A DNA stretch of 64,000 nucleotides. Origin: an uncultured Bacilli bacterium (GTDB lineage: Bacteria; Bacillota_I; Bacilli_A; RFN20; CAG-826). The notes beneath the pieces were generated by a model. That model was not told the DNA's origin and searched no databases. It worked only from the letters and a program-made list of their open reading frames with translations. The position numbers and the translations under genes were made by a program. Shown one piece after another: positions 19,297 through 48,873 of the stretch. How positions within the stretch are numbered: position 1 is the first letter of the stretch; every line of letters begins with the position of its first letter. Location of the stretch: contig CAKPJO010000001.1 of the NCBI GenBank assembly GCA_934162685.1, forward strand, positions 30,602 through 94,601. Reading direction: 5' to 3'.

Positions 19297-19300
19297 AACT

Positions 19301-25822: not shown

Positions 25823-27187
25823 ATGCTAACAAAAGAAAAATTAGAAGAAATCGTAAGTAGACCTGAATATGATTTTCTAAGAACTAATCCTCGATTAAAG
25901 GATAAAATCTTATTCTTGACTGTCGGAGGCAGCTATGCTTACGGAACCAATGTTGAAGGTTCAGATATCGACATTAGAGGAGTTGCGATGAATAGCATCG
26001 AAGATATTTTAGGTGGTACAACATTTGAACAATTTCAAAATGATGAAACCGATACAGTTATTTATTCAGTCAATAAGTTTATTAAATTGGTAACTGATTG
26101 TAATCCTAATGTTATTGAAATGTTATTTTGTGAACCTGCTCAATACATTTGGGTATCTCCATTAGGACAATTATTATTAGATAACAAACATCTATTTTTA
26201 TCTCAAAAAGCTTATTATACCTTTGGTGGATATGCTAGAGCTCAATTAAATAGATTAGAAAATGCTTTATGTAGAGGCAATTACTTCACACAGGCACAAA
26301 AAGAAGAGCACATTGCAAGAAGTGTAGAAAATTCTATTGATAGCTTTAGTGAAAAATATTCAGCAATGATACAAGGCAAAGGAAGCATCAAACTTCATAC
26401 TGATAAAGTAGATGAAAATGGCGATAGGATCATCACAACTGATATGACAATGAAAGATGTTCCTTTAAGAGAAGTTCGTTCTATGTTAGAAGAAATGACT
26501 AATATTGTAAGAGATTATGACAAGTCTGGTGGCTGGAGAAATACTAAGAAAGATATTCCGCACTTAAACAAGCATATTATGCATCTAGTAAGACTATATT
26601 ACATGGGTATTGAAATTCTAGAAACTGGTGCTTTACATACTTATAGAAGTAAAGAACATCAATTATTAATGAGCATCAGAAGTGGATTATTCTTAGACGA
26701 AAAGAATAATTTAAAACCTGAATTTTACACCGTATTAAATGATTTAGAAAATAAGTTAAAAACAGCTTTAGATAATAGTAAATTACCTAAAAAAGCTAGA
26801 CGAGATGAAATCAAACAATTACAAATTAAAATTAATTTATTAATGATTAAAATGGGTGCCTATAAAGAATATATCTTGACTGAGTTTGATTTAGATGAAA
26901 AAGAAAAAGTTGTTAATAATAAAAACTATAAAATTACCTTATCTGAAATTTTAAGTATGAACCCAAGCTATACTGCAATTCATTGTGATACCGAAGAAAA
27001 AGCCAATAAATTATTAACAATTTTAAATAAATTAGGACAAAAATGGATTAGTGGAGAATCATATTTAATAAATAACAACTGGAGGTCATACAAAACCCAA
27101 ACTTGTTATGGCTTAGATGGATCATATGGAATTTCTAAATGGTACGATGATGTTTACGAATTCGATGATATTGATTTAAATAATTAA
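25823..27187 (+). CDS. Pol-beta-superfamily nucleotidyltransferase fused to a C-terminal AIHCDT...YEFDDIDL domain (family member 4)
   Basis: NTase signature GGSYAYGTNVEGSDIDI (GS...DxD). C-terminal 90 aa AIHCDTEEKANKLL...LGQKW...TCY...VYEFDDIDL. Confidence 0.6.
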   Translation: MLTKEKLEEIVSRPEYDFLRTNPRLKDKILFLTVGGSYAYGTNVEGSDIDIRGVAMNSIEDILGGTTFEQFQNDETDTVIYSVNKFIKLVTDCNPNVIEMLFCEPAQYIWVSPLGQLLLDNKHLFLSQKAYYTFGGYARAQLNRLENALCRGNYFTQAQKEEHIARSVENSIDSFSEKYSAMIQGKGSIKLHTDKVDENGDRIITTDMTMKDVPLREVRSMLEEMTNIVRDYDKSGGWRNTKKDIPHLNKHIMHLVRLYYMGIEILETGALHTYRSKEHQLLMSIRSGLFLDEKNNLKPEFYTVLNDLENKLKTALDNSKLPKKARRDEIKQLQIKINLLMIKMGAYKEYILTEFDLDEKEKVVNNKNYKITLSEILSMNPSYTAIHCDTEEKANKLLTILNKLGQKWISGESYLINNNWRSYKTQTCYGLDGSYGISKWYDDVYEFDDIDLNN

Positions 27188-27207
27188 TTAATAAAAGGAG
27201 AATAAAA

Positions 27208-27600
27208 ATGAGAAAAAAATTAGTAAAAATACTTACACCAAATACAAAAAGAGGAATTGACAATTTAATAGAATTAGCAAAAAAAGAAGGTCACGATAAA
27301 ATTAGTGATATAAGAATTTCTTTTAACGGGAATAGAGACATACTACATTGGAACGATGAAGATGTGACAGTTACTATCACATTAATAGGTAAATATAGAT
27401 TGAAAAGTCGTGGGACAGGATATCGTTTTGCAGCCACACTTACTGTTTTTAGTGATATAGAAGCTTATTATCTAGACTGTCTTAAATATGATTTTAATCA
27501 AGAAGAACGCGAAGTTGAATTAAGCATCAAAGAATATAATGATGAAAAATATGTTATTTGTGAAAATTATCGTGAAATAGATTTAGCGTTAGGAAAATAA
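27208..27600 (+). CDS. hypothetical protein
   Basis: RBS AAGGAG. Confidence 0.5.
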   Translation: MRKKLVKILTPNTKRGIDNLIELAKKEGHDKISDIRISFNGNRDILHWNDEDVTVTITLIGKYRLKSRGTGYRFAATLTVFSDIEAYYLDCLKYDFNQEEREVELSIKEYNDEKYVICENYREIDLALGK

Positions 27601-27606
27601 AATTTT

Positions 27607-29073
27607 ATGGAAAGAAAAGATATTGAACAACTTATAAAATACACTTTACCAACTGAGGTATTCACAATCTTTAACACTTTAGAAAATAAAGGTTTTGAAA
27701 CTTATTTAGTGGGCGGAAGTGTGAGAGACATGTGCTTCAATGCTATTTTTCACGACAATAAAGACGCTCGTTATCGTAACGTTCACGATTTTGATTTTGC
27801 AACCGCTGCTCTTCCTGAAGAAATTATAGAAGTTTTTAAAGATTATGAAGTAATTCCAACTGGGTTAAAACACGGCACTGTTACAGTCAGGATCAACCAT
27901 CAAAATTTTGAAATAACAACATTCAGAATAGATGGTAAATATGACGATTTTCGTCATCCTAACTCTGTATCATTCACCAGATCTATAGAAGAAGATTTGA
28001 GCCGTCGCGACTTCACAATGAACGCTATTGCTTATAGTCCAACAAGAGGTTTAGTCGATCCTTTTAATGGTATTGGAGATCTTGATAATATAAGATGTGT
28101 TGGAGACCCAACCCAAAGATTTCGAGAAGATCCTTTAAGAATTCTTAGAGCATCACGCTTTGCTCTTCAATTTATGATACCTATTGAAATCAATACATAT
28201 GAAGCTGCTCAACAAAACGTGAATTTAATTCATCATTTATCAAAAGAAAGAGTAACTGATGAATTCAAAAAAATGTTAAATATCGATCCTTTAAACATTA
28301 CTTATTCTATATTTAGAACTTATTATGGCTTTATTTTAGAAGAATACTTTCCAACATTAAAAGAATACGCAAATTTTCGTCCTACTTTGAATAAAGAACC
28401 TCAAATTTGGAATAAATATCTTCGTATACAAGACCATCAAGTTAATGTGTTTTTAAGAGTGAGATATTTATATCCAATGTTTGATTTTGCTCTTTATTTG
28501 GCTGCTTTATGTCACGACTTAGGAAAACAAAATGCAGAAACAGTAACTCTAACAGACGACAAAATTAAAATATATCATTATTATAGACATCCAGAAGAAA
28601 GTCTTAAAATTTTTGAACAAGAAGTATTGCCTCGTTTATCATTATCAAAAAGAGAAATTGACGAAGCCAGAACATTAATTTTATATCATGATATGCGTAT
28701 TGCCCCTACTAAAAAATCAGTAAAAAAAGCTTTACAAAAAATGTCCCCATTAATGTTATCTTTATTATTTAAATTGCAAGAAGCTGACCTTGATGACCAT
28801 GAATTTGCTAATTTATTAAGAAAGAAAAATACATATCGTGATTTATATGTGACACAATACATCGCCTCAGAAATTCATAAAGATATTCAAGAATGCTTCA
28901 CCATAAAACAACTTAAAATCAATGGTAGAGACCTTCTAAATTTAGGAATAGAACCAGGCCCCAAAATTGGTAAAATTCTTAAAGAATTATTAAAGAAAGT
29001 TATTGATGAAGAGATTCAAAATGATCCTAGGTCTCTCTTACAATATGCACAACATTTAGCCACAAAAGAATGA
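27607..29073 (+). CDS. cca: CCA-adding enzyme / tRNA nucleotidyltransferase (class II, with HD domain)
   Basis: Head motifs LVGGSVRDMCF and RRDFTMNAIAY. HD-like LCHDLGK in the C-terminal half. Confidence 0.7.
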   Translation: MERKDIEQLIKYTLPTEVFTIFNTLENKGFETYLVGGSVRDMCFNAIFHDNKDARYRNVHDFDFATAALPEEIIEVFKDYEVIPTGLKHGTVTVRINHQNFEITTFRIDGKYDDFRHPNSVSFTRSIEEDLSRRDFTMNAIAYSPTRGLVDPFNGIGDLDNIRCVGDPTQRFREDPLRILRASRFALQFMIPIEINTYEAAQQNVNLIHHLSKERVTDEFKKMLNIDPLNITYSIFRTYYGFILEEYFPTLKEYANFRPTLNKEPQIWNKYLRIQDHQVNVFLRVRYLYPMFDFALYLAALCHDLGKQNAETVTLTDDKIKIYHYYRHPEESLKIFEQEVLPRLSLSKREIDEARTLILYHDMRIAPTKKSVKKALQKMSPLMLSLLFKLQEADLDDHEFANLLRKKNTYRDLYVTQYIASEIHKDIQECFTIKQLKINGRDLLNLGIEPGPKIGKILKELLKKVIDEEIQNDPRSLLQYAQHLATKE

Positions 29074-31487: not shown

Positions 31488-31553
31488 AAACTCTCTTTTT
31501 TAATGCTCTTCAAACGGTGACAAAATGTCACCCTTTCATAAAGGCATTTTCTT

Positions 31554-31595
31554 ATTGACAAATATTTATATTTATATATAATAAAATTGTGAAAA
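31554..31595 (+). promoter_or_regulatory. sigma-A type promoter P11 (TTGACA-17-TATAAT)
   Basis: Consensus hexamers preceding the GC-richer gene trio that ends with the sigma factor. Confidence 0.55.
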
Positions 31596-31626
31596 AACAT
31601 CAGTCACAAAAAAGGAGGGTCCAACC

Positions 31627-32062
31627 TATGTTAGAACCAATTAATAAAAAAAGTAAAGAATGGTTTTTCCTAGAAGTTCAAAGAGAAAGTAAACCAAATA
31701 CAATGTATCAACAAATTCCGTATCACGAAGTTTCTTTTGAAGAATATGTAAATAAATATCAAGCAGTCACGCAAGCACGCTCCAAAGCTCTTGCCTATTG
31801 TGCTGCTCATAACATTCCAGAGTCAGAATGTCCAATCAAATTAACCTATGAGATAGAAACATTTGATGGCTACGTTATATCTACCTGGCGCTATCACGAT
31901 GCCTACACAGATGTGCTCTTAGAACATCGTTACTTATCTAAAGAAACTCGCAGTATTCTTAAAGCACATCGCTCCAAAAAAGAGAAGCGTCAAACAGATA
32001 GTGACACTAACCAACTCGCCGCCGATCCAACAGCCATAGAAGCACAAGGAGGTCTATTCTAA
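31627..32062 (+). CDS. hypothetical protein
   Basis: ATG 31627 with AAAGGAGGG RBS. The ORF-track ATG 31589 lies at or upstream of the predicted transcription start of P11. Confidence 0.45.
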
Positions 32063-32063
32063 A

Positions 32064-32453
32064 ATGTTAATACCGAAAACCTCCCAATCCCTCAAAAACC
32101 CCGATGTCATCGGCATAAAATCGAATAAAAGTAATATTTTATTTAATCTCTGTGTTTCTGATGAGCTTTCAAGCTATATAATTTTAAAACCAGCTCCCCT
32201 AGGAACCATCGGATTATATGAATTTATGCCCATATCTACATTCCTCGTAGTTACGGATAATTCAAATATAACTCAAGTATCAATAGATATGGAGCACGTT
32301 CCTGACATACATACACAGTTATACGTATACCTATATACGTGTATAACATGCAACCCCGCATATGAAGAATTGCTCCCTCTAACGTTACAAGACAAAATTA
32401 TCTTATCTTGTATCAAAGCTATTGCTAGCACAAAAAGAAAGGAAATAAAATAA
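32064..32453 (+). CDS. hypothetical protein (C-rich codon usage)
   Basis: Shares atypical composition with the following sigma gene. Confidence 0.45.
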   Translation: MLIPKTSQSLKNPDVIGIKSNKSNILFNLCVSDELSSYIILKPAPLGTIGLYEFMPISTFLVVTDNSNITQVSIDMEHVPDIHTQLYVYLYTCITCNPAYEELLPLTLQDKIILSCIKAIASTKRKEIK

Positions 32454-32457
32454 GCTT

Positions 32458-33135
32458 ATGTCTAACTCAGCAATACATCAATCAAATAATAAACAACAAA
32501 CCAAACAAACCGCACGTCACCCAAAGCGCGGTCAATATAAAGACTACTCTCAACCGCTCAACGGTATGACCCTCGAACAGTCCAACAAACTTGTCACAGA
32601 TAATATGGCACTCGTCTTCTGGGTCTTAAAAGAGAAATTTCACTTTGATCCTTCCACGATGCAAGATTATGAAGATGTTGTATCTCTCGGAATGCAAGGG
32701 TTAGTCATCGCAGCACGCTGTTATGACTCTTCCACAGGTTATAGTTTTTCAACCTATGCAACACATTGCATCTCCTCTCAAATTCACTCAGAGTATTTCC
32801 GACGTAATCAAACACTCAAAGCAACACCCGAGATAGCCCCCGCTTACCTCGATGCTCCCCTCCCTCTTGAGACAGATCACGGAGCTAAGAAAACACTTCT
32901 TGATCTTCTCCCAGCATCACCTTCTTCAGATCCTTCCTTCACCCAGGACGCCCACACCATAATGGACTTCATAATTAATAATCCCGTCCCCAACAAATCC
33001 ACCCTCCTCTCCTATCTCCAAGGAACCCGCATCATAGACATTGCCAAACAAGAGTCCGTCTCCACCACCTCCATCCAGAACCGCCTTAAAGTTTCTATAT
33101 CTTATCTTCGTTCCATCTTCAACCCTTCTCACTAG
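32458..33135 (+). CDS. sigma-70 family sigma factor (regions 2 and 4)
   Basis: Region 2 LGMQGLVIAARCYD...YSFSTYATHCISSQI resembles sigma-70 region 2.1-2.3 (FSTYA). C-terminal HTH IIDIAKQESVSTTSIQNRLKVSISYLR resembles region 4.2. C-rich codon usage distinct from the surrounding genes. Confidence 0.6.
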   Translation: MSNSAIHQSNNKQQTKQTARHPKRGQYKDYSQPLNGMTLEQSNKLVTDNMALVFWVLKEKFHFDPSTMQDYEDVVSLGMQGLVIAARCYDSSTGYSFSTYATHCISSQIHSEYFRRNQTLKATPEIAPAYLDAPLPLETDHGAKKTLLDLLPASPSSDPSFTQDAHTIMDFIINNPVPNKSTLLSYLQGTRIIDIAKQESVSTTSIQNRLKVSISYLRSIFNPSH

Positions 33136-33165
33136 CCCCCTCCCCAGGGGTTTTTCTTTTTTTAT
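33136..33165 (+). terminator. intrinsic terminator (CCCCTccccAGGGG plus T-run)
   Basis: GC stem followed by TTTTTCTTTTTTT directly after the sigma gene stop. Confidence 0.6.
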
Positions 33166-33550
33166 CCTTCTTTTTACCTCTTTTTACCTTCTGGGGGAAA
33201 CGCGCAGTGAGCCATTGGGTATTGAACTTGTGCAATAGCCATTGGCGAACGATGAGCGCGTGGGGGCAAACGCGTGCCACTCCGAGATGACACACTCTGC
33301 AAGTCTTGAGAGAAAAAATGAAAATTTTTATACTCACACACTTGCGAGAGCTTTTCAACGAAAAGTCGAGGCAAAATTGCTTTACTTTCTTTAAGGGGGA
33401 ATATAAACCGAAGGTTTATATGAAATTCTTTTTACTCTTTTTAATCTTTTCTTTATTTATTTCTTTTCTTTTTAATCAACTTTTTTCTTTTCGTTTTTCT
33501 TTCTTTTCGGTTTTTTCTCATTTTTCTTGGGGGACGGTTCTTTAAAAGCA

Positions 33551-33625
33551 TGCGTGCGTGACGCACGTGTACGTGTATGCACGTATGTGTACATGTACAT
33601 ACATACACACATCACATACACAAAA
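33551..33625. repeat. 75-bp alternating purine-pyrimidine tract ((CA/TG)n and CACGTG-rich, Z-DNA-prone)
   Basis: gtgcgtgacgcacgtgtacgtgtatgcacgtatgtgtacatgtacatacatacacacatcacatacaca. Confidence 0.7.
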
Positions 33626-33642
33626 ACTAATGTGCCATTGTC

Positions 33643-33790
33643 CGCCAGCTTCAAAGCTAACTTCAAAGCTAACTTCAAAGCTTGTTTCAGAACTCTTTAT
33701 AACTCTTTAATGACCACTTACTCAAATTTTTTGATACACTTACTTCAATGTAACTTCAATGAAGCTTTGAACTAACTTCAATGTAACTTA
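33643..33790. repeat. tandem and dispersed short repeats (CTTCAAAGCTAA x3; ACTTCAATG(T/A)A x3)
   Basis: Direct reading of the sequence. Confidence 0.65.
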
Positions 33791-34027
33791 GTAATTTATA
33801 ATTTAACTTAAGTCAGGTTAAAAGTAAAAATATTAAGTTATAATCTTCCTTGAGTTCGCTTCGCTTATTTAATGGCGTAAGTGCTTATGCCCTTCCGCCA
33901 ATCTTCCATTTAAAAGTCTTGCTTCCGCAATCCTTTCAAATCCGCAAAGTGTATTTATTCTTTTTTTGTTTTCTTTTCTGTACTTTGAGTTTATGTAATA
34001 CCCAAAACTACTTAAAATGAAATATTC

Positions 34028-34332
34028 ACTATTTTTTCTCCATTTAATTCAAAGAATCTCAAGTAAAACAAGTTATAACAAGTATTTATTCGTTTTTATT
34101 GAGTTTGTTTTTTTATTCTTGATTTAATTCAAGAAAAAAATAGAAGGTTCTCGTGTACGCGTGTATACATGTATGCGTAACGTGTAAAACTCTTATTTTT
34201 TAGATTTATTAAATACTCTTTAATTTATTTTCCATTTAATTCAAGAAATTAGGTCTAAAGTGGTTTAAAACTAGTATTTATTAGTCTGGAGTGTGTTTGG
34301 TTAGTTTTTATCCATTCAATTCAAGAAAAAAA
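34028..34332. repeat. iteron-like TTCCATTTAATTCAAGAA boxes (4 copies here, a fifth at 36548)
   Basis: Copies at ~34028, 34115 (palindromic TTCTTGAtttaatTCAAGAA), 34229 and 34300. Confidence 0.55.
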
Positions 34333-34803
34333 TTAGTTAAAATTGATTCTGGAGTGTTTTGAGAGTTATACAGGGGCTTTGATTTATATGATTTAAGCGT
34401 TACACTTTGTAACGGTTTGGGTGTAACAGTTTGGTATGTTTTGTTTCACACTTTCGAGGATTACTCGTTTGTTCATTTGGGTATTTAGAGAAAATTTTTA
34501 AGTAGGATTTAAGCAAGATATTAAGTAGGATTTAAGTAGGATGATTGGTATGGTAAAATAAAGGATAAGTGGGAGAGAGGTGGGTCAAAGTGGGATAAAA
34601 TTAGGTGAAAGTGGGAGGTCACGTGTGCGGGCGCGTGCGCGATTTTCTAGGTGTGATATTTGTCACACTTTTGGCTGGGTCAAAGAAGAGAGAAGTCTTC
34701 TTTTTCTCCGATTCTAAGCCACTATTCTACAATTTTTTAGAATGATTCTAAAAATCAACAACTGTTAAAATATCAACAAAATAATTAAAAATGTTGAAAA
34801 AAG

Positions 34804-34854
34804 ATATCGAACACTTTGTTCGGAAACTCAGAAATATCGAACACTTTGTTCGAT
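34804..34854. promoter_or_regulatory. pair of palindromic operator-like sites ATCGAACACTTTGTTCGAT, 31 bp apart, upstream of P12
   Basis: Perfect 8-3-8 palindrome (second copy) and a near-perfect first copy. They lie 45-95 bp upstream of the -35. Confidence 0.55.
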
Positions 34855-34898
34855 TACTCAAAAGACGGTTGCACCAACTTAAAAAAACTCCAAAAAAA

Positions 34899-34940
34899 CT
34901 TGACATTTGATAAAAATCAATTATACTAAATAATGTAAAG
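34899..34940 (+). promoter_or_regulatory. sigma-A type promoter P12 (TTGACA-17-TATACT-AAATAATGTAAAGGAG)
   Basis: Family consensus. Confidence 0.55.
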
Positions 34941-34952
34941 GAGTGTGATAAT

Positions 34953-35273
34953 ATGAAACTACCAGAGACACTAACAGTACCAATGGAAGAGCAAGAGACT
35001 CTGATCAGTTGGAGTAGAAATGATGAAAAGGTAAAGATCTATACATCAGATAATACAGTACTAACAAAACTCAAGAAACTATCAGAAACAGCACCTGATA
35101 AATATAAACTAGTAAGTGTTGTTAATAATCAAGATGGCAGTGCATATTCTGTAACATTTGAAGTGAATAAAAAATGTGTAAGCTTAAGACAAGGAAAAGA
35201 AAGAGAATACACAGAAGAGCAAAAACAAGAAATGTTAGAGAGAATGTCAGCATTAAGAAATAGGAAAGGATAA
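34953..35273 (+). CDS. hypothetical protein
   Basis: RBS AAGGAG. Confidence 0.5.
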   Translation: MKLPETLTVPMEEQETLISWSRNDEKVKIYTSDNTVLTKLKKLSETAPDKYKLVSVVNNQDGSAYSVTFEVNKKCVSLRQGKEREYTEEQKQEMLERMSALRNRKG

Positions 35274-35279
35274 AGACAT

Positions 35280-36125
35280 ATGGGATACGATAAACTATTT
35301 GATGACTGGGATAAAATTAAACATCGAACAGATCATTTTCTAACGTATAATAAAGTAGAGAAAAAATATATAGAAGCATATAAAAAGGAAACGCAGGCAT
35401 GTGACGCACATGTGCCTACACATACACACGTAAATATAAATAAGGATAATATATCCGATATCCAAGAAAATCAGAAGTTCTTAAGTGAGCCATTTGTAAG
35501 ATTCAGAGGCATCGCGAAGAATGACGATGATAAGGGCTGGGTATATGGATATTACTATAAGCAATTATATAGTATAGATGAGAACGGCGCACCTATATAT
35601 AGACATTACATTGTGATGGACTGTGAGAATAAGATGACAGCGTGGATGAAAGGACTGGTAAAAGAACCGTTAAGAAGTCCAGTCTTTGTTGAAGTCATCG
35701 GAGAGACAGTCACGCAATGGACGAAGTGTACAGACATTGAAGGTAATGATATATACGAAGGTGATATCGTCGAGGTGTATGAGTTTGTTAATAATGGCGA
35801 AGGAGAGAATCATAGGCCTGTAAAAAAGAAAGTGTTTGATGGAGTAGCTGCTGTGGGTGAGATAGGTAGAGGCGAAAAGAACGGAGGACCTTGCTTGTTT
35901 GTTGGATGCATTAACGATGCAGCTAGACTGGTCGCTAAGAACTTTAGAGAAGCTGTATATGGATATAAGATCGTGGGTAACTTCTATGAGAATCCAGAGT
36001 GGTATAAAGAAAGAAAAACAGTCATAGATATAGCTGATGAAACGGACGATCGTGACGATGATGATGGCTTTGATGACATCTGGGATAGGGTTGATCCTGA
36101 AGACTGTGGAGATGATGAAGCATAA
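35280..36125 (+). CDS. hypothetical protein with a poly-Asp C-terminal tail
   Basis: GC-richer ORF. Contains a Pu-Py alternating tract in codons ~35393-35425. C-terminus DDRDDDDGFDD. Confidence 0.45.
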   Translation: MGYDKLFDDWDKIKHRTDHFLTYNKVEKKYIEAYKKETQACDAHVPTHTHVNINKDNISDIQENQKFLSEPFVRFRGIAKNDDDKGWVYGYYYKQLYSIDENGAPIYRHYIVMDCENKMTAWMKGLVKEPLRSPVFVEVIGETVTQWTKCTDIEGNDIYEGDIVEVYEFVNNGEGENHRPVKKKVFDGVAAVGEIGRGEKNGGPCLFVGCINDAARLVAKNFREAVYGYKIVGNFYENPEWYKERKTVIDIADETDDRDDDDGFDDIWDRVDPEDCGDDEA

Positions 36126-36343
36126 TGTATTGGTATGATGATGATAACTTCTGGGAGGACAAGAAACCTCCTAAGACATATGATTACCTGCATGATGATA
36201 TAGAGGATCCTGCGGAATATGATGATTGGCTAAGATATATGGCAAGAGGAATCGGATTAAGGTATCCAGATGATGATGATGCGTATAAAGATCATGATGA
36301 ATACGGTGATATAATAATGCCATGGAATGATGATGACGATTAG
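36125..36343 (+). CDS. small highly acidic D/E/Y/W-rich protein (72 aa), DNA-mimic candidate
   Basis: ATGA overlap. About 40% Asp/Glu with interspersed aromatic residues. Confidence 0.45.
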   Translation: MYWYDDDNFWEDKKPPKTYDYLHDDIEDPAEYDDWLRYMARGIGLRYPDDDDAYKDHDEYGDIIMPWNDDDD

Positions 36344-36766
36344 AGAGCGTAAGCCCTCTTTTTGTTTTGTTCTGTGGAATGTTGCAATAGAGTATGATGA
36401 TTCATTTTGCAATTAGATAAATTAAGAATCCAGATGAACTAAATGATCTAGATGCATCTGATGAAGCATCAAGAAAAAGATCTGGCCCTCTGGTAAAAAA
36501 GATCCCCGCCACGCTATAAAAACGTCGCCCCATCAAACATTCAATTTATTTTCCATTTATTTCAAAGAATCTCAAACAGAATCCTTCTCAGGTATAATTT
36601 AAAGGAGCTCACCGTTCTTGTCTGCTATTTAAAGAACTACCTTTAAATAAATCACGTAAAATTAAAAATAACTATATATAAACTCTTAGAAATTCTCAGA
36701 ATCGTTAATTTAATTACTTAATAATTCAAAACAATTAAAAAAAATAAAAAAAGTTTTTAAAACCTA

Positions 36767-36810
36767 TTGACTTATTTTTATATTCCTGTATACTTATTAG
36801 TGTAAAGGGG
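36767..36810 (+). promoter_or_regulatory. sigma-A type promoter P13 (TTGACT-16-TATACT-TATTAGTGTAAAGGGGG) inside the ORF-free island
   Basis: Family consensus; followed by an RBS and a 30-codon ORF. Confidence 0.5.
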
Positions 36811-36828
36811 GAAAGGAAATGAACCTCC

Positions 36829-36924
36829 AAAGTACCCCTTGCAGTTCTTTGAAAAATCAATATCGGTCCATTATCATTTTGGATAAAAAAGAATTCATCA
36901 CAGTGACGACGTCATAAAAAGAAC
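36829..36924 (+). CDS. 30-aa ORF (MNLQSTPCSSLKNQYRSIIILDKKEFITVTTS) with a strong RBS
   Basis: GGGGGAAAGGAAATG. The only credible ORF in 36.35-38.66 kb; may be a leader peptide. Confidence 0.3.
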
Positions 36925-38664
36925 TTAACCCGTCCACTCGTGAAAGATAGTCTGACGATATAAAGTGGGAAAATTGTGGTGGGGATAAAGTAGCGCTCTT
37001 GTCTGGAAATGACATACCTCCATAATTATGCAGTTCGGTATACTCTGGAGCTCTGTGCGAAGCGAGGCGTCGGTACCGTGATGAACTCTTTTAAAAGCTA
37101 GTACGGAACTTAGCCAAATCTCGCTGATACTATTAAAATAACATTTATCATGTTTTCTCCAACCTATATTTAAATGTATCTTATCGGTTAATTTATCATC
37201 ACAGGGAAATTGATGATGCAATGCAATACGCTATTAATTTTAACCAACATAGCACAACTTAGTGAATCCCCAATTCACTTCCCGCACTACTTTCCAAAAG
37301 ATTCATTCAAACCATCCCCTTAACAGGGATGCTACGAGGGCTCTGTTTAGAAGATCCTATAGGAACAGTTATTTATATTAATTTATAAACACCTGAACTT
37401 ATTATGGTCCCTATTTAAATGTGCAAATTTATTAACCCCTTCTTCAGAGCTTTCATAGGATCTTTGTTAGATCCAATTTTAGTTTTCATAAATAGATAAA
37501 GAGGACGCCTGCCTTGAACACACAGGTTTCCTTGAAGAGCAGAGATGGAATCAATCACCACCTTCCTATCGTGTTATAGTTACAGTTATAGTTGTTATGA
37601 TTTCATATTGATCAGTACCCTTTCTATCTCTGCTCCTTAAGGCAACTTGTTTACCTTAGCTCACACCGTATTCACCACTTTTCCTCCTGGTAGTACGGTG
37701 TTTTCGTCGTTATGCTTTTATCTTCGTTTAATAGATTCTTTTTTTATTGACACTGTGTCAGTAATATTCTGTGTCCTTATGTATCCAGATGATTACAAAA
37801 TGCAAGCACCTGATATTCTCTTATTTCTTACTTCTATCTATTTGCTCCAGTAAGTACAATTTTTTAATACTTTGCGGAGCAAAAATTGCACTTCAAATTC
37901 TTTTTTCCTCTGTTCAAGTGCAAAAAAATATCCGCCTCTCGTTGAAAAAAGGTCTGGCCTTATAGCTAATATATGAGCGATTAAGGTTAAAAAAGAGGTT
38001 TATCGCTAATATTTGAGCAGTTTCTCGTCATCGCATAGTATCCCCTGCGGGAGCGCCCTTTAGATCATTTTAATATTACTTTCTGGATCGTTTCTGGTTG
38101 TTATCTACCTCTTTTCTGGATGATGCATCAATGACATAATTCTGGTATAATTATGTAATAATTATATGCTCCGTAACTATATCATTGTAATGATACACTT
38201 TACACTATTCTACTCCATATGCTACACTACCTCCTCTCGTCCATTTCTTTTTTCGCTTATAGACATACACCAGATTTTTCGTGCCTATAAGGCCGAAAAA
38301 AATAGCGGCGCCGCAAAAAAAGTGGCCCTCCAGTAAAAAAAGTGGGGCGCCCGTGTAAAAAGTGCCCGCTCGCATAGTTTCCCCTGGCTGCGTAGTTTTA
38401 CGTCGGTTCATTTCCCTTCGACGGTTATTGCTTGCTTGGGGCTAGTTATAGGATCGCTTGGATTACGGATTTACTTTGCTTGAATAAAAATCAACTACTT
38501 AGACGGCGAGGAATAAAGGAGTGAACCTTTACTTTCGGCCCACTCCAGTCATGCAGCAAAATAAATATACTGCACAGACAATGAAACTTAACATAAGTCC
38601 ATTCATTGTTCACTCACCTCCTTTCCAATATATATTGTAACACATAAACTGTGTAATACAATCA

Positions 38665-39410: not shown

Positions 39411-39428
39411 GTTCCTATTTAATTAATA
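39411..39428 (-). promoter_or_regulatory. conserved AAAATTAAATAGGAAC box (minus sense) upstream of 38665..39390
   Basis: Minus-sense reading TGGTATAATgttattaattAAATAGGAACAAG, then RBS. Member of a 9-copy motif family. Confidence 0.5.
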
Positions 39429-39491
39429 ACATTATACCACAAGCGTTATTGAAACACAAGTGGTATAATAATTTTGGTTAATTAATATGAA

Positions 39492-39764
39492 CTACCATTC
39501 ACGATAATATTTTGTGTATGAAGTATTAGGATAAAGCTTAGAATCTTCTGCTTCTTCACATTCGGTAACAGTAATTTCAACGTGATGAGTATGACATCTT
39601 GTTTCATCAGCCATTACTTCATCTACTTTCTGTTTAAGAGCGTTGGATACTTTTGAGAAGTTATCCATAGGTTCTGTTACTCTGAACTCAAGAGTGGGTT
39701 CATTCATTTCATCACAACTAACAATTTTACAACTTCCAATATAAACAATTTTTCTCATTTTCAT
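39492..39764 (-). CDS. hypothetical protein
   Basis: RBS AGGAGGAAA. Confidence 0.5.
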   Translation of the reverse strand: MKMRKIVYIGSCKIVSCDEMNEPTLEFRVTEPMDNFSKVSNALKQKVDEVMADETRCHTHHVEITVTECEEAEDSKLYPNTSYTKYYREW

Positions 39765-39779
39765 TTTCCTCCTTATTGT

Positions 39780-40058
39780 TTATTTATTAAGATATACTTT
39801 TTTGTCATTATAGCCTAGATCTTTAATAATCTCTGGTAAATGTTCTGTTCCGAATCCTAATGATTCATAATTATTGAATCCAAAAACTTCGTCCATTTGT
39901 ATTTGTTCGTGCCATACATTAAATATGTGAGCGTGATTACCTTTCTCGCAAACACAACAACACCAACCTTCTTCTCTTCCTATATATTGTCCTGTCCAAA
40001 CATCTCCAAATGCGTCTTTTACTTTGTACCAATGACCTTTAATGAATTTACTTTTCAT
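39780..40058 (-). CDS. hypothetical protein
   Basis: RBS AAGGAGGAAC. Confidence 0.5.
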   Translation of the reverse strand: MKSKFIKGHWYKVKDAFGDVWTGQYIGREEGWCCCVCEKGNHAHIFNVWHEQIQMDEVFGFNNYESLGFGTEHLPEIIKDLGYNDKKVYLNK

Positions 40059-40094
40059 AACGTAGTTCCTCCTTTATTTTAGTTATGATAGAAT

Positions 40095-40112
40095 GTTCCT
40101 ATTGAATTTTAA
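40095..40112 (-). promoter_or_regulatory. conserved box (AAAATTCAATAGGAAC, minus sense)
   Basis: 37 nt upstream of the ATG of 39780..40058. Confidence 0.5.
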
Positions 40113-40119
40113 TTTTTAA

Positions 40120-40893
40120 TTATTTAATAATACGAATCTTAAGTTGTTCTGGATATGATATACCTGCTACACTTAATACATCATAACAAATTTCTATGAA
40201 TGATAAATCTTTATATTCTTCATCAAACATACAAGCCCCACCATCATCTTCTTTCAATTTGTTTTTCCATATTTCTATGTTCTCTTCTGTTATTTTATCT
40301 TGTATTTCGGGATTATTTTCATACACCTCATAATAAGCGTATGATTCATATCCTTCTTCATCATCTTCTTCACTTAAATCTGAAGTTCCTTCGCAAATAT
40401 GAAAAATCCAATGTTCATGTTCATAATCATTAGAATCTCCTACGGCTACCCAGAAATCTGTTTTAGTATCTGGACGTCCTTCAATTTTCATCTGAGATAA
40501 TTTTCTCATATTTTCTTGCCCTTTATAGACATCATTTATATCTACATTAAATGCTTGATGAGCAATTAATTCAAGCCAATCAATATAATATGGTTGAATA
40601 TTTTGATTGTTTTTACATTCTTCTAAAAGTTCTGCGAATGATTTACTATAAACATCTTGTAAACCATAAATTTCATTTAAGTCATCAAGAATATAATTAT
40701 CATAATATATGTCTAATCTATCTAATACAGCTGCTGTATTATCAAAACGATCCTTTTCGATTTTACCAAGATTAGCACCTTGTAAATCTTCTAAGCTATA
40801 ATATTGTATTCCTTCTACTTCTTCCTGTTTGATTAATTTGAAGTCCAAGTCCGATAACAACATAGCACAAATTTTTGCATAATTCTTTTTCAT
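40120..40893 (-). CDS. acidic hypothetical protein
   Basis: RBS AAAGGAGGAAAT. Confidence 0.55.
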   Translation of the reverse strand: MKKNYAKICAMLLSDLDFKLIKQEEVEGIQYYSLEDLQGANLGKIEKDRFDNTAAVLDRLDIYYDNYILDDLNEIYGLQDVYSKSFAELLEECKNNQNIQPYYIDWLELIAHQAFNVDINDVYKGQENMRKLSQMKIEGRPDTKTDFWVAVGDSNDYEHEHWIFHICEGTSDLSEEDDEEGYESYAYYEVYENNPEIQDKITEENIEIWKNKLKEDDGGACMFDEEYKDLSFIEICYDVLSVAGISYPEQLKIRIIK

Positions 40894-40930
40894 ACATTAT
40901 TTCCTCCTTTGTATGATTTAATAAACAACT

Positions 40931-40950
40931 GTTCCTATTTAATTTTTAAA
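40931..40950 (-). promoter_or_regulatory. conserved box (AAAAATTAAATAGGAAC, minus sense)
   Basis: 38 nt upstream of the ATG at 40893. Confidence 0.5.
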
Positions 40951-40963
40951 CTCTTGTTTAGCT

Positions 40964-41146
40964 TTAGTCTAATAATAAACAAAGCAATAATAATAAAATA
41001 AAAGGCCAAATTGGATAACCTTCTCTTTTAACTTGTTTGAACAAGAAATATAAAACCGCTCCTACAAACACCAATAAGAAAATTGCAACTTCCATATTGC
41101 ACATTCCTCCTTTCTTTTTAATTATTGAGGTGATAATCCACACCAA
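40964..41146 (-). CDS. small membrane protein
   Basis: Hydrophobic; RBS AAGGAGGAATG. Confidence 0.45.
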   Translation of the reverse strand: MVWIITSIIKKKGGMCNMEVAIFLLVFVGAVLYFLFKQVKREGYPIWPFILLLLLCLLLD

Positions 41147-41229
41147 AGTACGAAAAACAAAAGTAATAATAAAGCTAAAACTAAATAAGTATAATCTTCA
41201 TTACTCATAATATTTTCTCCTTTCTTTTA

Positions 41230-41859
41230 TTAGTGTTGATGGAAGAAAGTCATTTGACCTAACATCATCTTCCAACAATTTTTACAAGTTTTACAACTTC
41301 CTGGACATTGATATCCGCCAGCTGGTACACTTGCTTTGAATTCGGATGATTCCTTGAATTCCACATATGTAACAGGAAGCAGATATTTATTCTTAACTGT
41401 TTTATTGTATTCTTCGTCCCACATACTTAAAACAATTTTAAGATTTATAGGAAGTTTTTCAATACCGTGTTTGTCAATCCATTCATTGATTAACTCCCAT
41501 TTCTTAGTAAATGCTAAGAACATTGTTTGAGGACAAGCTAACGCAACTCTAACCATACCATCTAAATATTGTTCATCAACGATATCTCCTGATGAATGCC
41601 ATCTAAAATATTTATATGTGACATCGTCATTGTTTAAATATTTAATGACTTCATCAAAGAACGCTACGCTATCTTCATTATATGAATTATAATTATCCAT
41701 ATGAGACTTTTTAACGTTTGGATATAAATGAGTTCCTCTACGAGCGTAGCAAAGTTTTGCACAAGGTGCATTTCTTCTACAAGTGATGATTGGTGGGAGA
41801 TTTAAAGTTGGAATCTTATCTCCTAATTTACTATTTTGCAAACTGATGTGTACTAACAT
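41230..41859 (-). CDS. Cys-rich hypothetical protein (CRRNAPCAKLCY...CPGSCKTCKNC)
   Basis: RBS AGGAGGAAAAATG; probable metal-binding clusters. Confidence 0.55.
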   Translation of the reverse strand: MLVHISLQNSKLGDKIPTLNLPPIITCRRNAPCAKLCYARRGTHLYPNVKKSHMDNYNSYNEDSVAFFDEVIKYLNNDDVTYKYFRWHSSGDIVDEQYLDGMVRVALACPQTMFLAFTKKWELINEWIDKHGIEKLPINLKIVLSMWDEEYNKTVKNKYLLPVTYVEFKESSEFKASVPAGGYQCPGSCKTCKNCWKMMLGQMTFFHQH

Positions 41860-41905
41860 AACATTTTTCCTCCTTATATATAATTTGTTATGAATCGACT
41901 CGACT

Positions 41906-41925
41906 GTTCCTATTTAATTTTTAAT
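41906..41925 (-). promoter_or_regulatory. conserved box (AAAAATTAAATAGGAAC, minus sense)
   Basis: 47 nt upstream of the ATG at 41859. Confidence 0.5.
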
Positions 41926-41933
41926 TTATATGT

Positions 41934-42740
41934 TTATTCTATTAAAGAATAACACTCTATATGACCTTCTTTGTCAATAAACTTAATATTATATTTCCTA
42001 ATATTATTTAATTTGTCAACTTCTTCTGTAAATGTTCTAAATTCATCTTCTGAATAAGCATAATTTTCAGGCATAAAGACATCTCGATAATATTGATATG
42101 ATTTTTGATCTTTAGATTCATCAGCTTCTATTTCTTGTTTATCCTCATCATCAAGGTCACCAAAATTTTCTTCATATTCAAATTGATCATAAACTGCATT
42201 GACTCCAAAATAAGAAACATAAGCTTCGTGATGTTCTGTGTCAATAGTAATTTCAACATCACCTTCTGACCATGCTTGGGTGTCATCCATATCTTTGTCA
42301 AAGATACCAATTAAACCATAGTTTCTATTATAAGTAAATGCTCCATCTTCAGCCATTCTATCTTCAATAAGCTTTAATGCTTCGTCAGATAAACCAATAT
42401 CATGTTTAAGATAGTAATAGAAATTTTTACAAATAGGTCCTCGTAAATTTTCTGGAATATTGTTTCCATTATGTAAATTATTGTCTTCACAGAATTTTTG
42501 CCAATATCCTTCGTAAGTGATATTAATTCTCTTATTAGATCTCAACATAGCTTCTAAAGCGATTTGTTTAGCATTTGCTTCTGGAAATTGTTTCATCATC
42601 TCATTCATTAATTCTAACATAACAAGAGTATTAGCTGCTGCGCTATCTGTATAAGCTGACCAGTGTTGATAAACATTTGCAACTCTTTCTTCTGTTTTTC
42701 CATCATAAACTGTAATAACTAATCTTTGTCCCATAATCAT
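41934..42740 (-). CDS. acidic hypothetical protein
   Basis: RBS AAGAGGAAAATG. Confidence 0.55.
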   Translation of the reverse strand: MIMGQRLVITVYDGKTEERVANVYQHWSAYTDSAAANTLVMLELMNEMMKQFPEANAKQIALEAMLRSNKRINITYEGYWQKFCEDNNLHNGNNIPENLRGPICKNFYYYLKHDIGLSDEALKLIEDRMAEDGAFTYNRNYGLIGIFDKDMDDTQAWSEGDVEITIDTEHHEAYVSYFGVNAVYDQFEYEENFGDLDDEDKQEIEADESKDQKSYQYYRDVFMPENYAYSEDEFRTFTEEVDKLNNIRKYNIKFIDKEGHIECYSLIE

Positions 42741-42783
42741 TTTCCTCTTTTCTTTTAAATTTTTGGGAAGCCTATATGGCTTT

Positions 42784-42801
42784 GTTCCTATTTAATTTTA
42801 A
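42784..42801 (-). promoter_or_regulatory. conserved box (AAAATTAAATAGGAAC, minus sense)
   Basis: 44 nt upstream of the ATG at 42740. Confidence 0.5.
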
Positions 42802-42806
42802 CATCT

Positions 42807-43106
42807 TTACTTCAATAGTTCAAGAATTTTTTGTTTGTATTCAGATTCTTTGCACCATTGATTTGGTCCACCACGAAAATCTGTTAATGATTCTGCTGTT
42901 CTATACATTGCTAAACCATTTACTAGTTCTGTTGTGATGTAAACAATCTTTTCATTGTCTGTGTTTTGAATAAAACCAATACATCCAACTTTGTGGTAGC
43001 AAGTAACATCATCTCGTAAATAAAACTTTAGATTTTTACAATCTCTAAACATATATTTAATAGCGCGTACAGATTTTCCTTTGCTTGGTAATAAATAATT
43101 TCTCAT
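42807..43106 (-). CDS. hypothetical protein
   Basis: Coupled to 43109..43387. Confidence 0.5.
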   Translation of the reverse strand: MRNYLLPSKGKSVRAIKYMFRDCKNLKFYLRDDVTCYHKVGCIGFIQNTDNEKIVYITTELVNGLAMYRTAESLTDFRGGPNQWCKESEYKQKILELLK

Positions 43107-43108
43107 TT

Positions 43109-43387
43109 TTATTTTCCTCCTATTGGTTTAATAAGAATAACTTCAACATCATTATCAGGGTCATCTGTTCCTGATTCAATATAAATGGTAATGCGAACAT
43201 CTTCATCTTCTTGTGGAGTAACATCAGCTTCTTCGTTACGAATGATTTGTACATTAGGAATTGTTTGAATAGCCGATATATATTCTTTTACCATATTTTT
43301 TGCTTCTTTTAAAGAATTAAAATAATGAATAGAAGAAGAATGATGGTCACAAATTTCTGCATATACTCTTCTTTTTTGTTTTTTCAT
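43109..43387 (-). CDS. hypothetical protein
   Basis: RBS AGGAGGAATC. Confidence 0.5.
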   Translation of the reverse strand: MKKQKRRVYAEICDHHSSSIHYFNSLKEAKNMVKEYISAIQTIPNVQIIRNEEADVTPQEDEDVRITIYIESGTDDPDNDVEVILIKPIGGK

Positions 43388-43410
43388 CTTGATTCCTCCT
43401 TTCTTTAGAA

Positions 43411-43698
43411 CTAGTCAGCATAACCTGCCGCTAGTTCTAATAAATCCCATTTATCCATTTGATCAATTTCTGCCCAAGATTTTTCTCTTCTTAAAGCATG
43501 TAACATTTCAACATAGCAATCAGGATTAAGATTATTAGGATCTTTTAATCCTAAATAACTTGCGTGACCGCATAATTGTTCAAATTCTTCATCATCAATG
43601 TTTACATCATATAAACATTGTACCGCATTCGCAATATTTACATCCCATACACTAATATTCTTTTCATTTAAGACTTCTAATTTTTGTTTGTAATTCAT
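43411..43698 (-). CDS. hypothetical protein
   Basis: RBS AGGAGGAAAATAATTATG. Confidence 0.5.
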   Translation of the reverse strand: MNYKQKLEVLNEKNISVWDVNIANAVQCLYDVNIDDEEFEQLCGHASYLGLKDPNNLNPDCYVEMLHALRREKSWAEIDQMDKWDLLELAAGYAD

Positions 43699-43732
43699 AA
43701 TTATTTTCCTCCTATATATGAATTTAACGACT

Positions 43733-43750
43733 GTTCCTATTGATTTATGT
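43733..43750 (-). promoter_or_regulatory. conserved box (variant ATAAATCAATAGGAAC, minus sense)
   Basis: 35 nt upstream of the ATG at 43698. Confidence 0.45.
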
Positions 43751-43769
43751 ATTAAAATGAATAATAAAA

Positions 43770-44231
43770 TTATTTACTTAATAAGCGACGTATTCTTTCT
43801 ATTACTTGCGGTATCAATCTATCATTGATATATGCAGCAGAATATTTATTTTGAACATCATCTATTTTTGCTTTTTCTGTAATGTCAGAATATCCTTGTT
43901 CAAAAAGAAGCGAAACTTGTCTTAATTTATTGTACGTTGATATGTAGTCATATAATTCATCAAGTTCTTCTTCTGTTAAAGGTGTTGCTTCCATTGTTTT
44001 TCTAAATTCTGTTTGTGTCAATAATCCTTGAGAATAATAATCAGGATATCCTTCAGGACGACCTAATATGACCATATTGAGATAGTCCCAATGTGGAGAT
44101 TTTTCATCTCGTTCTTTAACAAATTGAGGTTCTCTTAACCAATATCTGCGTCCAATTTTATTACGACCTAATAAATAATGATTGACTCCTAAATAAACTT
44201 TTGTTTGTTTTAACATTTTTCTTTTACGCAT
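43770..44231 (-). CDS. hypothetical protein (paralog of 45851..46339)
   Basis: Shared YWL(Q/R)xP(E/Q)(W/F) N-terminal and GYSxxT(D/E)xAKID...ERI(D/R)xLL C-terminal blocks. Confidence 0.55.
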   Translation of the reverse strand: MRKRKMLKQTKVYLGVNHYLLGRNKIGRRYWLREPQFVKERDEKSPHWDYLNMVILGRPEGYPDYYSQGLLTQTEFRKTMEATPLTEEELDELYDYISTYNKLRQVSLLFEQGYSDITEKAKIDDVQNKYSAAYINDRLIPQVIERIRRLLSK

Positions 44232-44271
44232 ATTTTTCTTCCTCCTATTTAACTAATAAGTAAAAGAGAGA

Positions 44272-44745: not shown

Positions 44746-44768
44746 TTTTCCTCGATTCTTTGAATTTT

Positions 44769-44803
44769 GTTCCTATTTAGTTTTAATGTTCCTATTTGAT
44801 TTG
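44769..44803 (-). promoter_or_regulatory. two tandem conserved boxes (AAACTAAATAGGAAC; AAATCAAATAGGAAC, minus sense)
   Basis: 24 and 43 nt upstream of the ATG at 44745. Confidence 0.5.
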
Positions 44804-45067: not shown

Positions 45068-45073
45068 CTTTCT

Positions 45074-45532: not shown

Positions 45533-45596
45533 GATAATTTTTCCTCTCTTTCTATATATATTATATCATGTTTAATAATGTTTGTAAAGACAAAGA

Positions 45597-46339: not shown

Positions 46340-46358
46340 AATTTTCACCTCCTTCTTT

Positions 46359-48833: not shown

Positions 48834-48873
48834 GGGATAAGAATATTTTTAAGGAGAAAATATTCAAAACCTT

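Follow-up and report, generated by a model that had tools for sequence, protein, structure and literature searches.

The open reading frame (ORF) at 32458 to 33135 of the 64,000-nucleotide stretch analysed here, which we call the window, is, on the evidence of sequence profiles and a predicted fold, a genuine two-domain (sigma2-linker-sigma4) sigma-70-family factor, predicted to bind core RNA polymerase and to direct promoter-specific initiation. It is a divergent addition to a common group, the phage-encoded sigma factors, and its identification is solid. Less ordinary than the factor itself are its coexistence with a YonO-type RNA polymerase in the same phage and a codon signature, C-rich and G-poor, that the two loci share. 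The phage is uncultured, its genome has ~140 kb and a GC content of about 30%, and the window lies in a contig of ~139 kb (ERZ27287164 k141_2689782) that encodes the identical sigma protein. In our best overall explanation, to which we give a probability of about 0.7, the factor would act as a middle/late switch and the two C-rich islands would be compositionally distinct modules. The compositional anomaly is real, and the mechanism of the sigma factor is what we infer.

The gene and the parts of its product are as follows.
32458 to 33135, plus strand: sigma-70-family factor gene, 225 amino acids (Pfam, PHROG, NCBIfam, homologue alignment, AlphaFold model, Foldseek)
Amino acids 1-38, plus strand: N-terminal tail, predicted to be disordered (AlphaFold2)
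Amino acids 39-121 (32572 to 32820), plus strand: predicted sigma2 helical bundle (AlphaFold2, confidence >90)
Between sigma2 and sigma4, plus strand: predicted linker of 37 amino acids, low confidence (AlphaFold2)
Amino acids 159-221 (32932 to 33120), plus strand: predicted sigma4 helical domain (AlphaFold2, confidence about 95)

A phage-encoded sigma-70-family factor with a region 2 and a region 4-like helix-turn-helix (HTH) had been proposed in the original prediction, and profile searches, alignments and fold comparison bear the family assignment out. Neither of the two outcomes that would have refuted this prediction, a lack of sigma HMM matches and uniform codon usage, was observed. Pfam Sigma70_r2 (PF04542) matches the ORF at 32.6 bits, above its gathering score of 24, PHROG_351 'RNA polymerase sigma factor' matches it at 3.9e-17, and TIGR02937 can be aligned to amino acids 43-218 with 42.1 bits, just under the family cut-off of 42.9. 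The translated ORF contains GYSFSTYATHCISSQIHSEY, and the motif from which region 2 had been proposed aligns with region 2.2-2.3 of SigK, SigE and SigA in a phmmer search against PDB. The region 4 models of Pfam give no direct match to the protein at E<=1, which speaks against a second domain, but homologue alignment, family profile and AlphaFold2 model support region 4. When 24 homologues are aligned with the protein, its C-terminus (...LQGTRIIDIAKQESVSTTSIQNRLKVSISYLRSIF) falls on their sigma4 HTH; among the 25 aligned sequences, 16 are matched by Sigma70_r4 and 12 by r4_2. Compared with PDB, the family profile finds sigma2 at about 1e-20 and a sigma3.2/sigma4 stretch at about 1e-7, including sigma4 of SigA at 1.6e-7. 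The AlphaFold2 model has a mean predicted local distance difference test score (pLDDT, the confidence given in the list above) of 82, with both sigma2 and sigma4 above 90, and it contains neither sigma3 nor sigma1.1. The leading Foldseek matches of this model in PDB and in the viral library BFVD are all sigma factors, the best PDB fold match being the model of B. subtilis SigH. The N-terminal tail of 36 amino acids is basic and Q/N-rich.

The ratio of non-synonymous to synonymous divergence (dN/dS) against the 86%-identical copy in the related contig L001 is 0.14, and the sigma gene is therefore under purifying selection. We searched 1.84 billion representative proteins exhaustively. At E<=1e-3 this gave 1,534 relatives, of which many have ~180-190 amino acids and align over amino acids 37-223. 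Outside its own lineage the nearest relatives are proteins of ~185 amino acids on phage contigs, with 34-38% identity, and genes for a DnaB-type helicase and DNA polymerase A adjoin them. Matches in GenBank phages comprise sigma2 only (30-36% identity), and none of the named SPbeta-like or YonO-bearing phages yielded a homologue in that search. No second sigma factor was found among all six-frame ORFs of the window (hmmsearch, family profile), and a scan of genome contigs for the host gave nothing but a sigma2 fragment, 34% identical and unrelated, from a metagenome-assembled genome of Saccharibacteria.

Phage sigma factors that redirect the host RNA polymerase are well known from SPO1 (gp28, gp33/gp34) and phiEco32 (gp36). 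The present factor resembles these in being a small sigma-70-family protein with a host-type early promoter, which presumably takes the place of the host sigma and gives access to a later class of genes; it differs in that it has no detectable close sequence relationship to them and in that this phage has a single-subunit polymerase of its own in addition. In T4, the late sigma factor gp55 consists of a sigma2-like part alone and depends on gp33 and the sliding clamp, whereas the window sigma has a full sigma4 HTH domain. In the succession of sigma2, linker and sigma4, without sigma1.1 and sigma3, and in its full-length TIGR02937 alignment, it is similar to group 4 (extracytoplasmic function, ECF) and Bacillus SigH-like sigmas. 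It differs from them, however, in a TIGR02937 score that stays just below the cut-off; moreover, it has no recognisable anti-sigma partner and carries the 36 extra amino acids of the tail, and Pfam Sigma70_ECF matches only 4 of the 25 aligned sequences, the window sigma not among them. It also shares with the sporulation-like sigmas of Bacillota phages (PMC9429907) that it is phage-borne and that its best named matches are SigK, SigE, SigF and SigG. Against the sporulation models SigE, SigK, SigF, SigG and SigH, however, it scores 27-42 bits where the equivalog cut-offs are 208-414, and sigma3 is absent; with scores about ten-fold under the cut-offs it is not an orthologue of any sporulation sigma.

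These matches bear on a different role for the factor, as an auxiliary, host-directed sigma that reprogrammes sporulation or stress regulons rather than middle or late genes of the phage. Its best named matches (SigK, SigE, SigF and SigH models, and sigma2 of SigK and SigE in PDB) point in this direction, and no promoter of the window can be assigned to the factor. Schwartz et al. 2022 (PMC9429907) showed that lytic growth can proceed without sporulation-like phage sigmas and that such sigmas are able to switch on sporulation genes of the host. We nevertheless consider such a role improbable: the sporulation sigma models score 30-42 bits against cut-offs of 208-349, so that no orthologue is present, the sigma3 domain is missing, the nearest relatives are small phage-contig proteins encoded beside replication genes, and one strong promoter drives the gene together with early genes.

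The sigma gene is the last gene of a tight three-gene operon that extends from a host-type promoter to an intrinsic terminator.
31516 to 31532, after the preceding gene and before the cassette promoter: inverted repeat GGTGACA-AAA-TGTCACC (read from the sequence)
31555 to 31582, plus strand: cassette promoter TTGACA-16 nucleotides-TATAAT, 12/12 to the sigmaA/sigma70 consensus
31628 to 32062, plus strand: ORF144, first operon gene, 144 amino acids (ATG at 31628, AGGAGG 8 nucleotides upstream)
32064 to 32453, plus strand: ORF129, second operon gene (AGGAGG before the start)
33137 to 33163, plus strand: intrinsic terminator CCCCT-CCCC-AGGGG plus T-run (CCCCTCCCCAGGGG; terminator scan)

Only 1 nucleotide separates the stop of ORF144 from the start of ORF129, and 4 nucleotides separate ORF129 from sigma. 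Both hexamers of the promoter are invariant in L001, L008 and L004, and the operon leader contains a duplication of 36 nucleotides in L001 and L008. Gene callers give the first ORF 144 amino acids from ATG 31628; GTG 31589 falls at the predicted transcription start and is therefore not the start codon. ORF144 is strongly conserved among lineages (92-97% identity, dN/dS 0.06), and ORF129 is fast-evolving (69% identical to the L001 copy, dN/dS 0.36). Neither protein matches an anti-sigma or any other family in Pfam, PHROG, NCBIfam or PDB. The homologue search returned ORF144 from the same lineage only, and its AlphaFold2 model (pLDDT 73.5) had no Foldseek match better than E = 0.014, with a TM score of about 0.3; in L005, the gene that precedes the sigma homologue shows no similarity to ORF129. 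Both arms of the inverted repeat upstream of the promoter are kept in relatives. The terminator scan did not call this repeat, its T-tail being too short; a weak terminator and an operator are both conceivable.

The GC hairpin terminator that had been described directly after sigma is present (CCCCTCCCCAGGGG with its T-run) and conserved in L001 and L003, and it is followed, as had also been noted, by a repeat island of ~1.8 kb, in which 1,817 nucleotides without a credible ORF hold several repeat families. Sigma had been described as the last gene of the plus-strand early module; it is not the last gene on the plus strand, since three further plus-strand genes (34953 to 36343) lie beyond this non-coding island. 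Near-consensus host-type promoters, about nine in number (at 3634, 7507, 11748, 14587, 25772, 29093, 30713, 31555 and 34900), all belong to the plus-strand module, and on the minus strand there are two matches of 11/12, at 45588 and 56257. From the consensus promoters of the plus-strand module we infer that it would be expressed early by the host holoenzyme. Directly after the -10 element of most early promoters, including those at 3634, 7507, 29093, 30713 and 34900, stands AAATA[GA]TGTAA, which may serve these promoters as a common operator or belong to an initial transcribed sequence that they share.

The sigma gene and the two ORFs upstream of it had been described as a codon-usage island, and the codon statistics agree.
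31750 to 33150, plus strand: compositional island 1, C-rich and G-poor (GC skew, codon statistics)

Codon usage is not uniform over the window: among 81 ORFs the sigma gene is the strongest outlier in synonymous usage (G = 246, 41 degrees of freedom, p = 5e-31). C at four-fold sites, 0.105 overall, is raised in all three genes (p<1e-3), to 0.44 in sigma (p = 1e-20), 0.31 in ORF144 (p = 3e-5) and 0.29 in ORF129 (p = 4e-4), and C/(C+T) at third positions amounts to 0.56 in sigma against 0.21 in the window. G is not raised at four-fold sites of the operon, being low at 0.03-0.10. The bias begins at ~31.75-31.8 kb within ORF144, GC skew drops from about 0 to -0.54 in the island, and the peak is reached in the last third of sigma, where C makes up 0.39 of all bases, 0.57 of third positions (C3) and 0.73 of four-fold sites (C4). 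The preference for C in sigma covers four-fold families (44% vs 8%) as well as NNY pairs, Leu and Arg codons have moved to CTN and CGN, and amino-acid usage has moved towards S, T, P, Q and H. Because the preference extends beyond NNY pairs and is accompanied by an amino-acid shift, it is a nucleotide-level pressure and not classical codon optimisation. Classical translational selection, which we considered as a cause, is ruled out by the five-fold rise of C in four-fold families together with that shift. An antisense gene was likewise rejected as the cause of the C-richness, because the minus-strand ORFs over the 3' end of sigma are not conserved: L001 and the window differ in their frame and in their extent.

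The bias is stable in the sense that C3 of sigma is 0.35-0.38 in four lineages with 81-96% nucleotide identity. Singleton substitutions on their terminal branches comprise 39 C gains and 39 C losses, and at third positions 23 changes from C to T stand against 20 from T to C, where the background regime would lead one to expect 84-87% C to T (P<=2e-6). A recent import that undergoes amelioration is ruled out by these polarised counts, the bias being shared by four diverged lineages and showing no decay. The sigma homologues in L005 and L006, with a C3 of 0.04-0.05, are as AT-rich as their neighbours, and the bias therefore does not travel with the protein family. At the onset of C-richness the identity between lineages drops from 0.91-0.95 to 0.77-0.87, and synonymous divergence (dS) of sigma, 0.65 against about 0.25 around it, is the highest of the neighbourhood.

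A second island of the same kind lies near the right end of the window, in a gene for a putative RNA polymerase.
63347 to 64000, minus strand: YonO-type RNA polymerase gene, part 1, cut by the window end (tblastn, Pfam RdRP)
62937 to 63346, minus strand: intervening sequence of ~410 nucleotides inside the polymerase gene (frame change at the motif)
60965 to 62936, minus strand: C-rich island 2, the polymerase 3' part (~431 codons) and ORF230 (C3, codon deviations)

By homology, the gene at 61644 to >64000 on the minus strand is classed as one for a YonO-type single-subunit (two-barrel) RNA polymerase. Part 1, which comprises 556 amino acids in the full contig, matches Pfam RdRP (PF05183) with 37.5 bits at a cut-off of 23.8. 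The window polymerase is 25-31% identical to a protein of 924 amino acids from Bacillus phage BUCT082 (Spbetavirus), which finds the two parts by tblastn at E = 8e-38 and 7e-34; its amino acids 335-552 match 64000 to 63347, and its amino acids 554-923 match 62933 to 61809 in a different frame. The BUCT082 protein is annotated as hypothetical and is read as YonO because HU-family and YonK-family genes come after it. Another tblastn match of 61641 to 62834, in Enterocloster phage PMBT24, is annotated as 'RNA-dependent RNA polymerase'. A minus-strand ORF of 824 amino acids that came into question as the YonO homologue is PcfJ-like instead. The window thus encodes a homologue of SPbeta YonO (PMC5467207) that differs from it by a split DxDGD motif and by the coexisting sigma.

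Part 1 ends in ...SDADYD-stop and part 2 starts with GDIVLST..., so that the catalytic DxDGD is divided (DADYD | GDIV). In the related phage L019 the same gap is filled by a NUMOD4/HNH endonuclease ORF. The intervening sequence is probably a group I intron, putatively self-splicing, because the frame shifts inside the catalytic motif and an HNH/NUMOD4 ORF stands at this site in L019; the Rfam model Intron_gpI (RF00028) matches it weakly on the correct strand (15.8 bits, E = 0.16; gathering score 50).

Apart from the sigma operon, the only C-enriched gene of the window is the one at 61641 to 62834 on the minus strand (C4 0.33, p = 1e-15). Codon usage switches abruptly at the intron junction: C3 is 0.07-0.20 in part 1 of the polymerase, whereas part 2 has 0.35 right from its beginning. 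It remains at 0.28-0.35 through ORF230 (0.26-0.35 for the island as a whole) and is normal again in ORF171. The log ratios of relative synonymous codon usage (RSCU) to background correlate between islands 1 and 2 (r = 0.85, p = 3e-17), and for RSCU itself the correlation is 0.75 between the islands against 0.31 between either island and the background. Homologues of part 2 in L019 and L021 (62-66% identity) have normal codon usage. At a different locus of L019 (15900 to 17332), among unknown proteins, there is a C-rich patch with a GC content of 0.42-0.49 and a C3 of up to 0.31, and C-rich patches therefore recur in this phage group. C-rich usage is a true synonymous-site property that is stable across lineages and common to both islands. 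The second island with the same codon signature and the split of the polymerase gene at DxDGD are new here.

The origin of this composition can have several explanations. We suggest that both islands would be compositionally distinct modules that stay C-rich through continuing exchange with a differently composed phage pool, or through selection. Abrupt edges, doubled divergence, the shared signature and patches at other loci in relatives argue for exchange, which we put slightly ahead of mutation and of selection on RNA or expression. Two observations count against it: we found no C-rich donor, the homologues of sigma (34-38%) and of the polymerase (62-66%) being in AT-rich genomes, and the mirror-image skew around the iteron-rich island downstream of sigma fits a local mutational cause as well. 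The original prediction had suggested separate acquisition of the island. The abrupt edges, the ~2-fold divergence relative to the flanks and the second locus with the same signature accord with this, and a recent import is contradicted by the stationary bias and the AT-rich nearest homologues; the island may have been acquired separately. A different translational regime, which the original prediction gave as the other possibility, is conceivable as well.

A local mutational footprint would have to be sought beside an origin of replication or a strand-exposed site in the non-coding island.
33136 to 34952, no strand assigned: non-coding island of 1.8 kb with iteron families (no credible ORF)

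The iteron CCATTTAATTCAAGAAA occurs four times with a spacing of 80, 112 and 80 nucleotides, and a further copy lies at 36552 to 36575. GC skew is -0.54 at 32.85 kb, changes its sign at ~34.0 kb within the iteron array (34031 to 34329) and reaches +0.58 on the right, and with this skew switch the island may be a putative replication origin. The C bias grows towards the non-coding island, synonymous divergence peaks at sigma, and the YopX-like gene on the right of the island is enriched in G at four-fold sites (0.18 vs 0.06, p = 5e-5). A second switch of skew from minus to plus, at ~60.4-60.8 kb, adjoins island 2. All this would be in keeping with a mutational cause. However, island 2 begins abruptly at the intron boundary without any gradient, the C gains came from A and not from T alone, at odds with simple deamination, and the effect is extreme (skew -0.5) yet confined to ~1.5-2 kb, beside a putative origin. 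We therefore regard a mutational footprint as possible and rather doubtful.

Alternatively, a C-rich, G-poor coding strand might be selected at the level of RNA or expression. Rare codons that end in C might slow or time the translation of transcription factors, a transcript with more C than G might load the termination factor Rho if it is poorly translated, or mRNA with little G might evade an endoribonuclease. RNA that is rich in C and poor in G is a hallmark of Rho loading sites. The bias is held at equilibrium against the AT pressure of the genome; it affects the sigma operon as well as the polymerase 3' part with ORF230, sigma and polymerase both being transcription machinery; and as homologues in other phages lack it, it is not a trait of the protein families. 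On the other hand, within the polymerase gene the bias is confined to the 3' part, though part 1 belongs to the same mRNA, and the amino-acid shift to S, T, P, Q and H points to nucleotide-level pressure. Such selection as the cause we consider unlikely.

With regard to the role of the factor, the host sigmaA holoenzyme would transcribe ORF144, ORF129 and sigma early, along with the replication genes, and the sigma factor would then bind the host core RNA polymerase and direct it to a phage-specific promoter class in a middle/late switch. Because the phage also encodes the putative YonO-type single-subunit RNA polymerase, a cascade appears probable, in which host sigmaA would be followed by the phage sigma, the phage polymerase or both; the phage thus has two candidate non-host transcription systems. 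The best candidate targets of sigma in the window, and candidates only, are promoters with AAATAGGAAC boxes at 39-49.5 kb.
39411 to 49522, minus strand: motif tAaAAtTaAATAGGAACA, twelve copies, single block, 7-50 nucleotides upstream of ribosome-binding sites

With up to 1 mismatch, tAaAAtTaAATAGGAACA has 26 matches against 9 expected, and none of 100 shuffles reaches 26. The box is confined to positions upstream of minus-strand genes at 39.4-49.5 kb, where the twelve copies precede nine intergenic starts. Tandem copies 17-19 nucleotides apart occur at two sites (44797/44778 and 49522/49505). The AAATAGGAAC box of ~18 nucleotides abuts the likely start site. A -35 element of ECF type (GGAAC) was considered for it and rejected, as at 39420 the box ends 7 nucleotides before the Shine-Dalgarno sequence; being too close to the latter for a -35 element, it is therefore a one-block, start-site-proximal element. 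The sigma factor gp36 of phiEco32 uses a single extended -10-like element, which would match a box of one block. The core TAAATA resembles the T4 late promoter TATAAATA, and the box might be a one-block, A/T-rich element of the -10 type.

On these motif data sigma may plausibly act at the AAATAGGAAC boxes, and several points weigh against such a link. No conserved upstream partner or -35 element of the box was seen, though the factor has a sigma4 domain; the layout of the box resembles the promoters of T7-class single-subunit polymerases; and the minus-strand genes behind the boxes are mostly of no known function and not recognisably structural, so that the label 'late' is unsupported. The box could serve a sigma of the -10-only kind and equally the single-subunit polymerase of the phage. 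That sigma switches transcription to the minus-strand or late genes, as the original prediction had it, is suggested by position only: its position fits, and what does not fit is a single-block box without -35 in front of genes that are not recognisably late, with the YonO-type polymerase as an equal candidate.

The AAATAGGAAC boxes might accordingly be read as promoters of the YonO-type polymerase, with sigma serving another class, for example AAAC-N18-GATATA, or sites beyond the window. The single block at the likely start site without a -35 element and the presence of the polymerase gene agree with this, as does a bipartite element of 50 nucleotides that occurs twice upstream of minus-strand genes. 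This element, ATTAAATGTyTGGyAAACATTTrAyTAGTATAAAAAGATATArCTrGACAG, lies on the minus strand at 55720 to 55770 and 57787 to 57835 upstream of two genes; it holds a palindrome together with the AAAC-N18-GATATA layout and is a weaker promoter candidate. With its two copies, however, it is too rare to define a promoter class, and for SPbeta YonO a single start site has been reported, from which one long late operon is read, in contrast to gene-by-gene promoters. The promoter that SPbeta YonO recognises is still undefined (Forrest et al. 2017, PMC5467207). We take this assignment of the boxes as a serious possibility, if not the one that we expect. It is very improbable, in our view, that both islands form one co-evolving module in which the sigma-like protein, or ORF144, ORF129 or ORF230, is the specificity factor of the YonO-type polymerase at AAATAGGAAC boxes; if true, this would answer how YonO-type enzymes find their promoters, a question that is open according to PMC5467207.

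The phage as a whole is distantly SPbeta-like. A megablast of 31-36 kb against GenBank phages gave no match; related contigs of the lineage are L001-L003, L008, L011 and L012, and the IMG/VR search for further relatives returned one contig only, of the same lineage. The plus-strand block at 0.2-31 kb contains a primase, an exonuclease, a split DNA polymerase and a RecD-like helicase, the last being 28-33% identical to those of the nearest named phages, all of them distant, namely Brevibacillus phage Sundance, Thomasclavelia phages and SPbeta-like Staphylococcus and Mammaliicoccus phages. Homology to DNA polymerase (PHROG_405) is split over two ORFs 5.5 kb apart, and a LAGLIDADG/HNH-like ORF abuts the second part (3721 to 7479, 12018 to 13031 and 13024 to 14583). 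A cluster of the RNA-repair type (18046 to 20485 and 25823 to 29073) comprises an RNA ligase, a class-V aminotransferase, an RlaP-type nucleotidyltransferase and a CCA-adding enzyme; there are no tRNA genes in the window.

A second large non-coding region extends from 36344 to 38664, and the two regions flank three plus-strand genes. Compared with L001, the non-coding sequence at 33152 to 34344 is 81-99% identical per 200-nucleotide window (92-99% outside 33548 to 33944), and the sigma gene 73-89%. Just past the sigma terminator there is a GC-rich block (33190 to 33320, about 55%) with about 2 differences between lineages. Rfam has no match for this block, folding gave z-scores of only about -1.9 on either strand, and a small RNA and a site of protein binding are possible readings of it. 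Rfam gave no known RNA family at threshold in the window, including the non-coding islands and this block. Alternating purine-pyrimidine tracts (ACGTGTACGTGTATGCACG...) of 52 nucleotides at 33561 to 33612 and of 28 nucleotides at 34152 to 34179 are Z-DNA-prone and gave spurious matches to microRNA families in the Rfam scan; elsewhere in the window there is one 16-mer. Two direct repeats of 30 nucleotides (34804 to 34863), just upstream of the promoter at 34900, are operator-like, and each contains the palindrome CGAACACTTTGTTCG, which is close to the consensus of the Bacillus LexA/SOS box, CGAACATATGTTCG (PMC8270828).

Phage sigma factors are a textbook device of gene timing, and the gene alone adds one divergent member to them. 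A sigma factor together with a YonO-type polymerase in one phage would make a compact system for studying how a transcription programme is divided and which of the two reads the AAATAGGAAC boxes. Equally, two stretches of ~2 kb, both encoding transcription proteins, hold C-rich, G-poor usage at equilibrium in a genome of 30% GC. If selection is the cause of these islands, regulator genes would be under a layer of control that has gone unrecognised; if it is local mutation, the islands would mark sites of replication or strand exposure; and if it is gene flow, modules would circulate between phages of different base composition.

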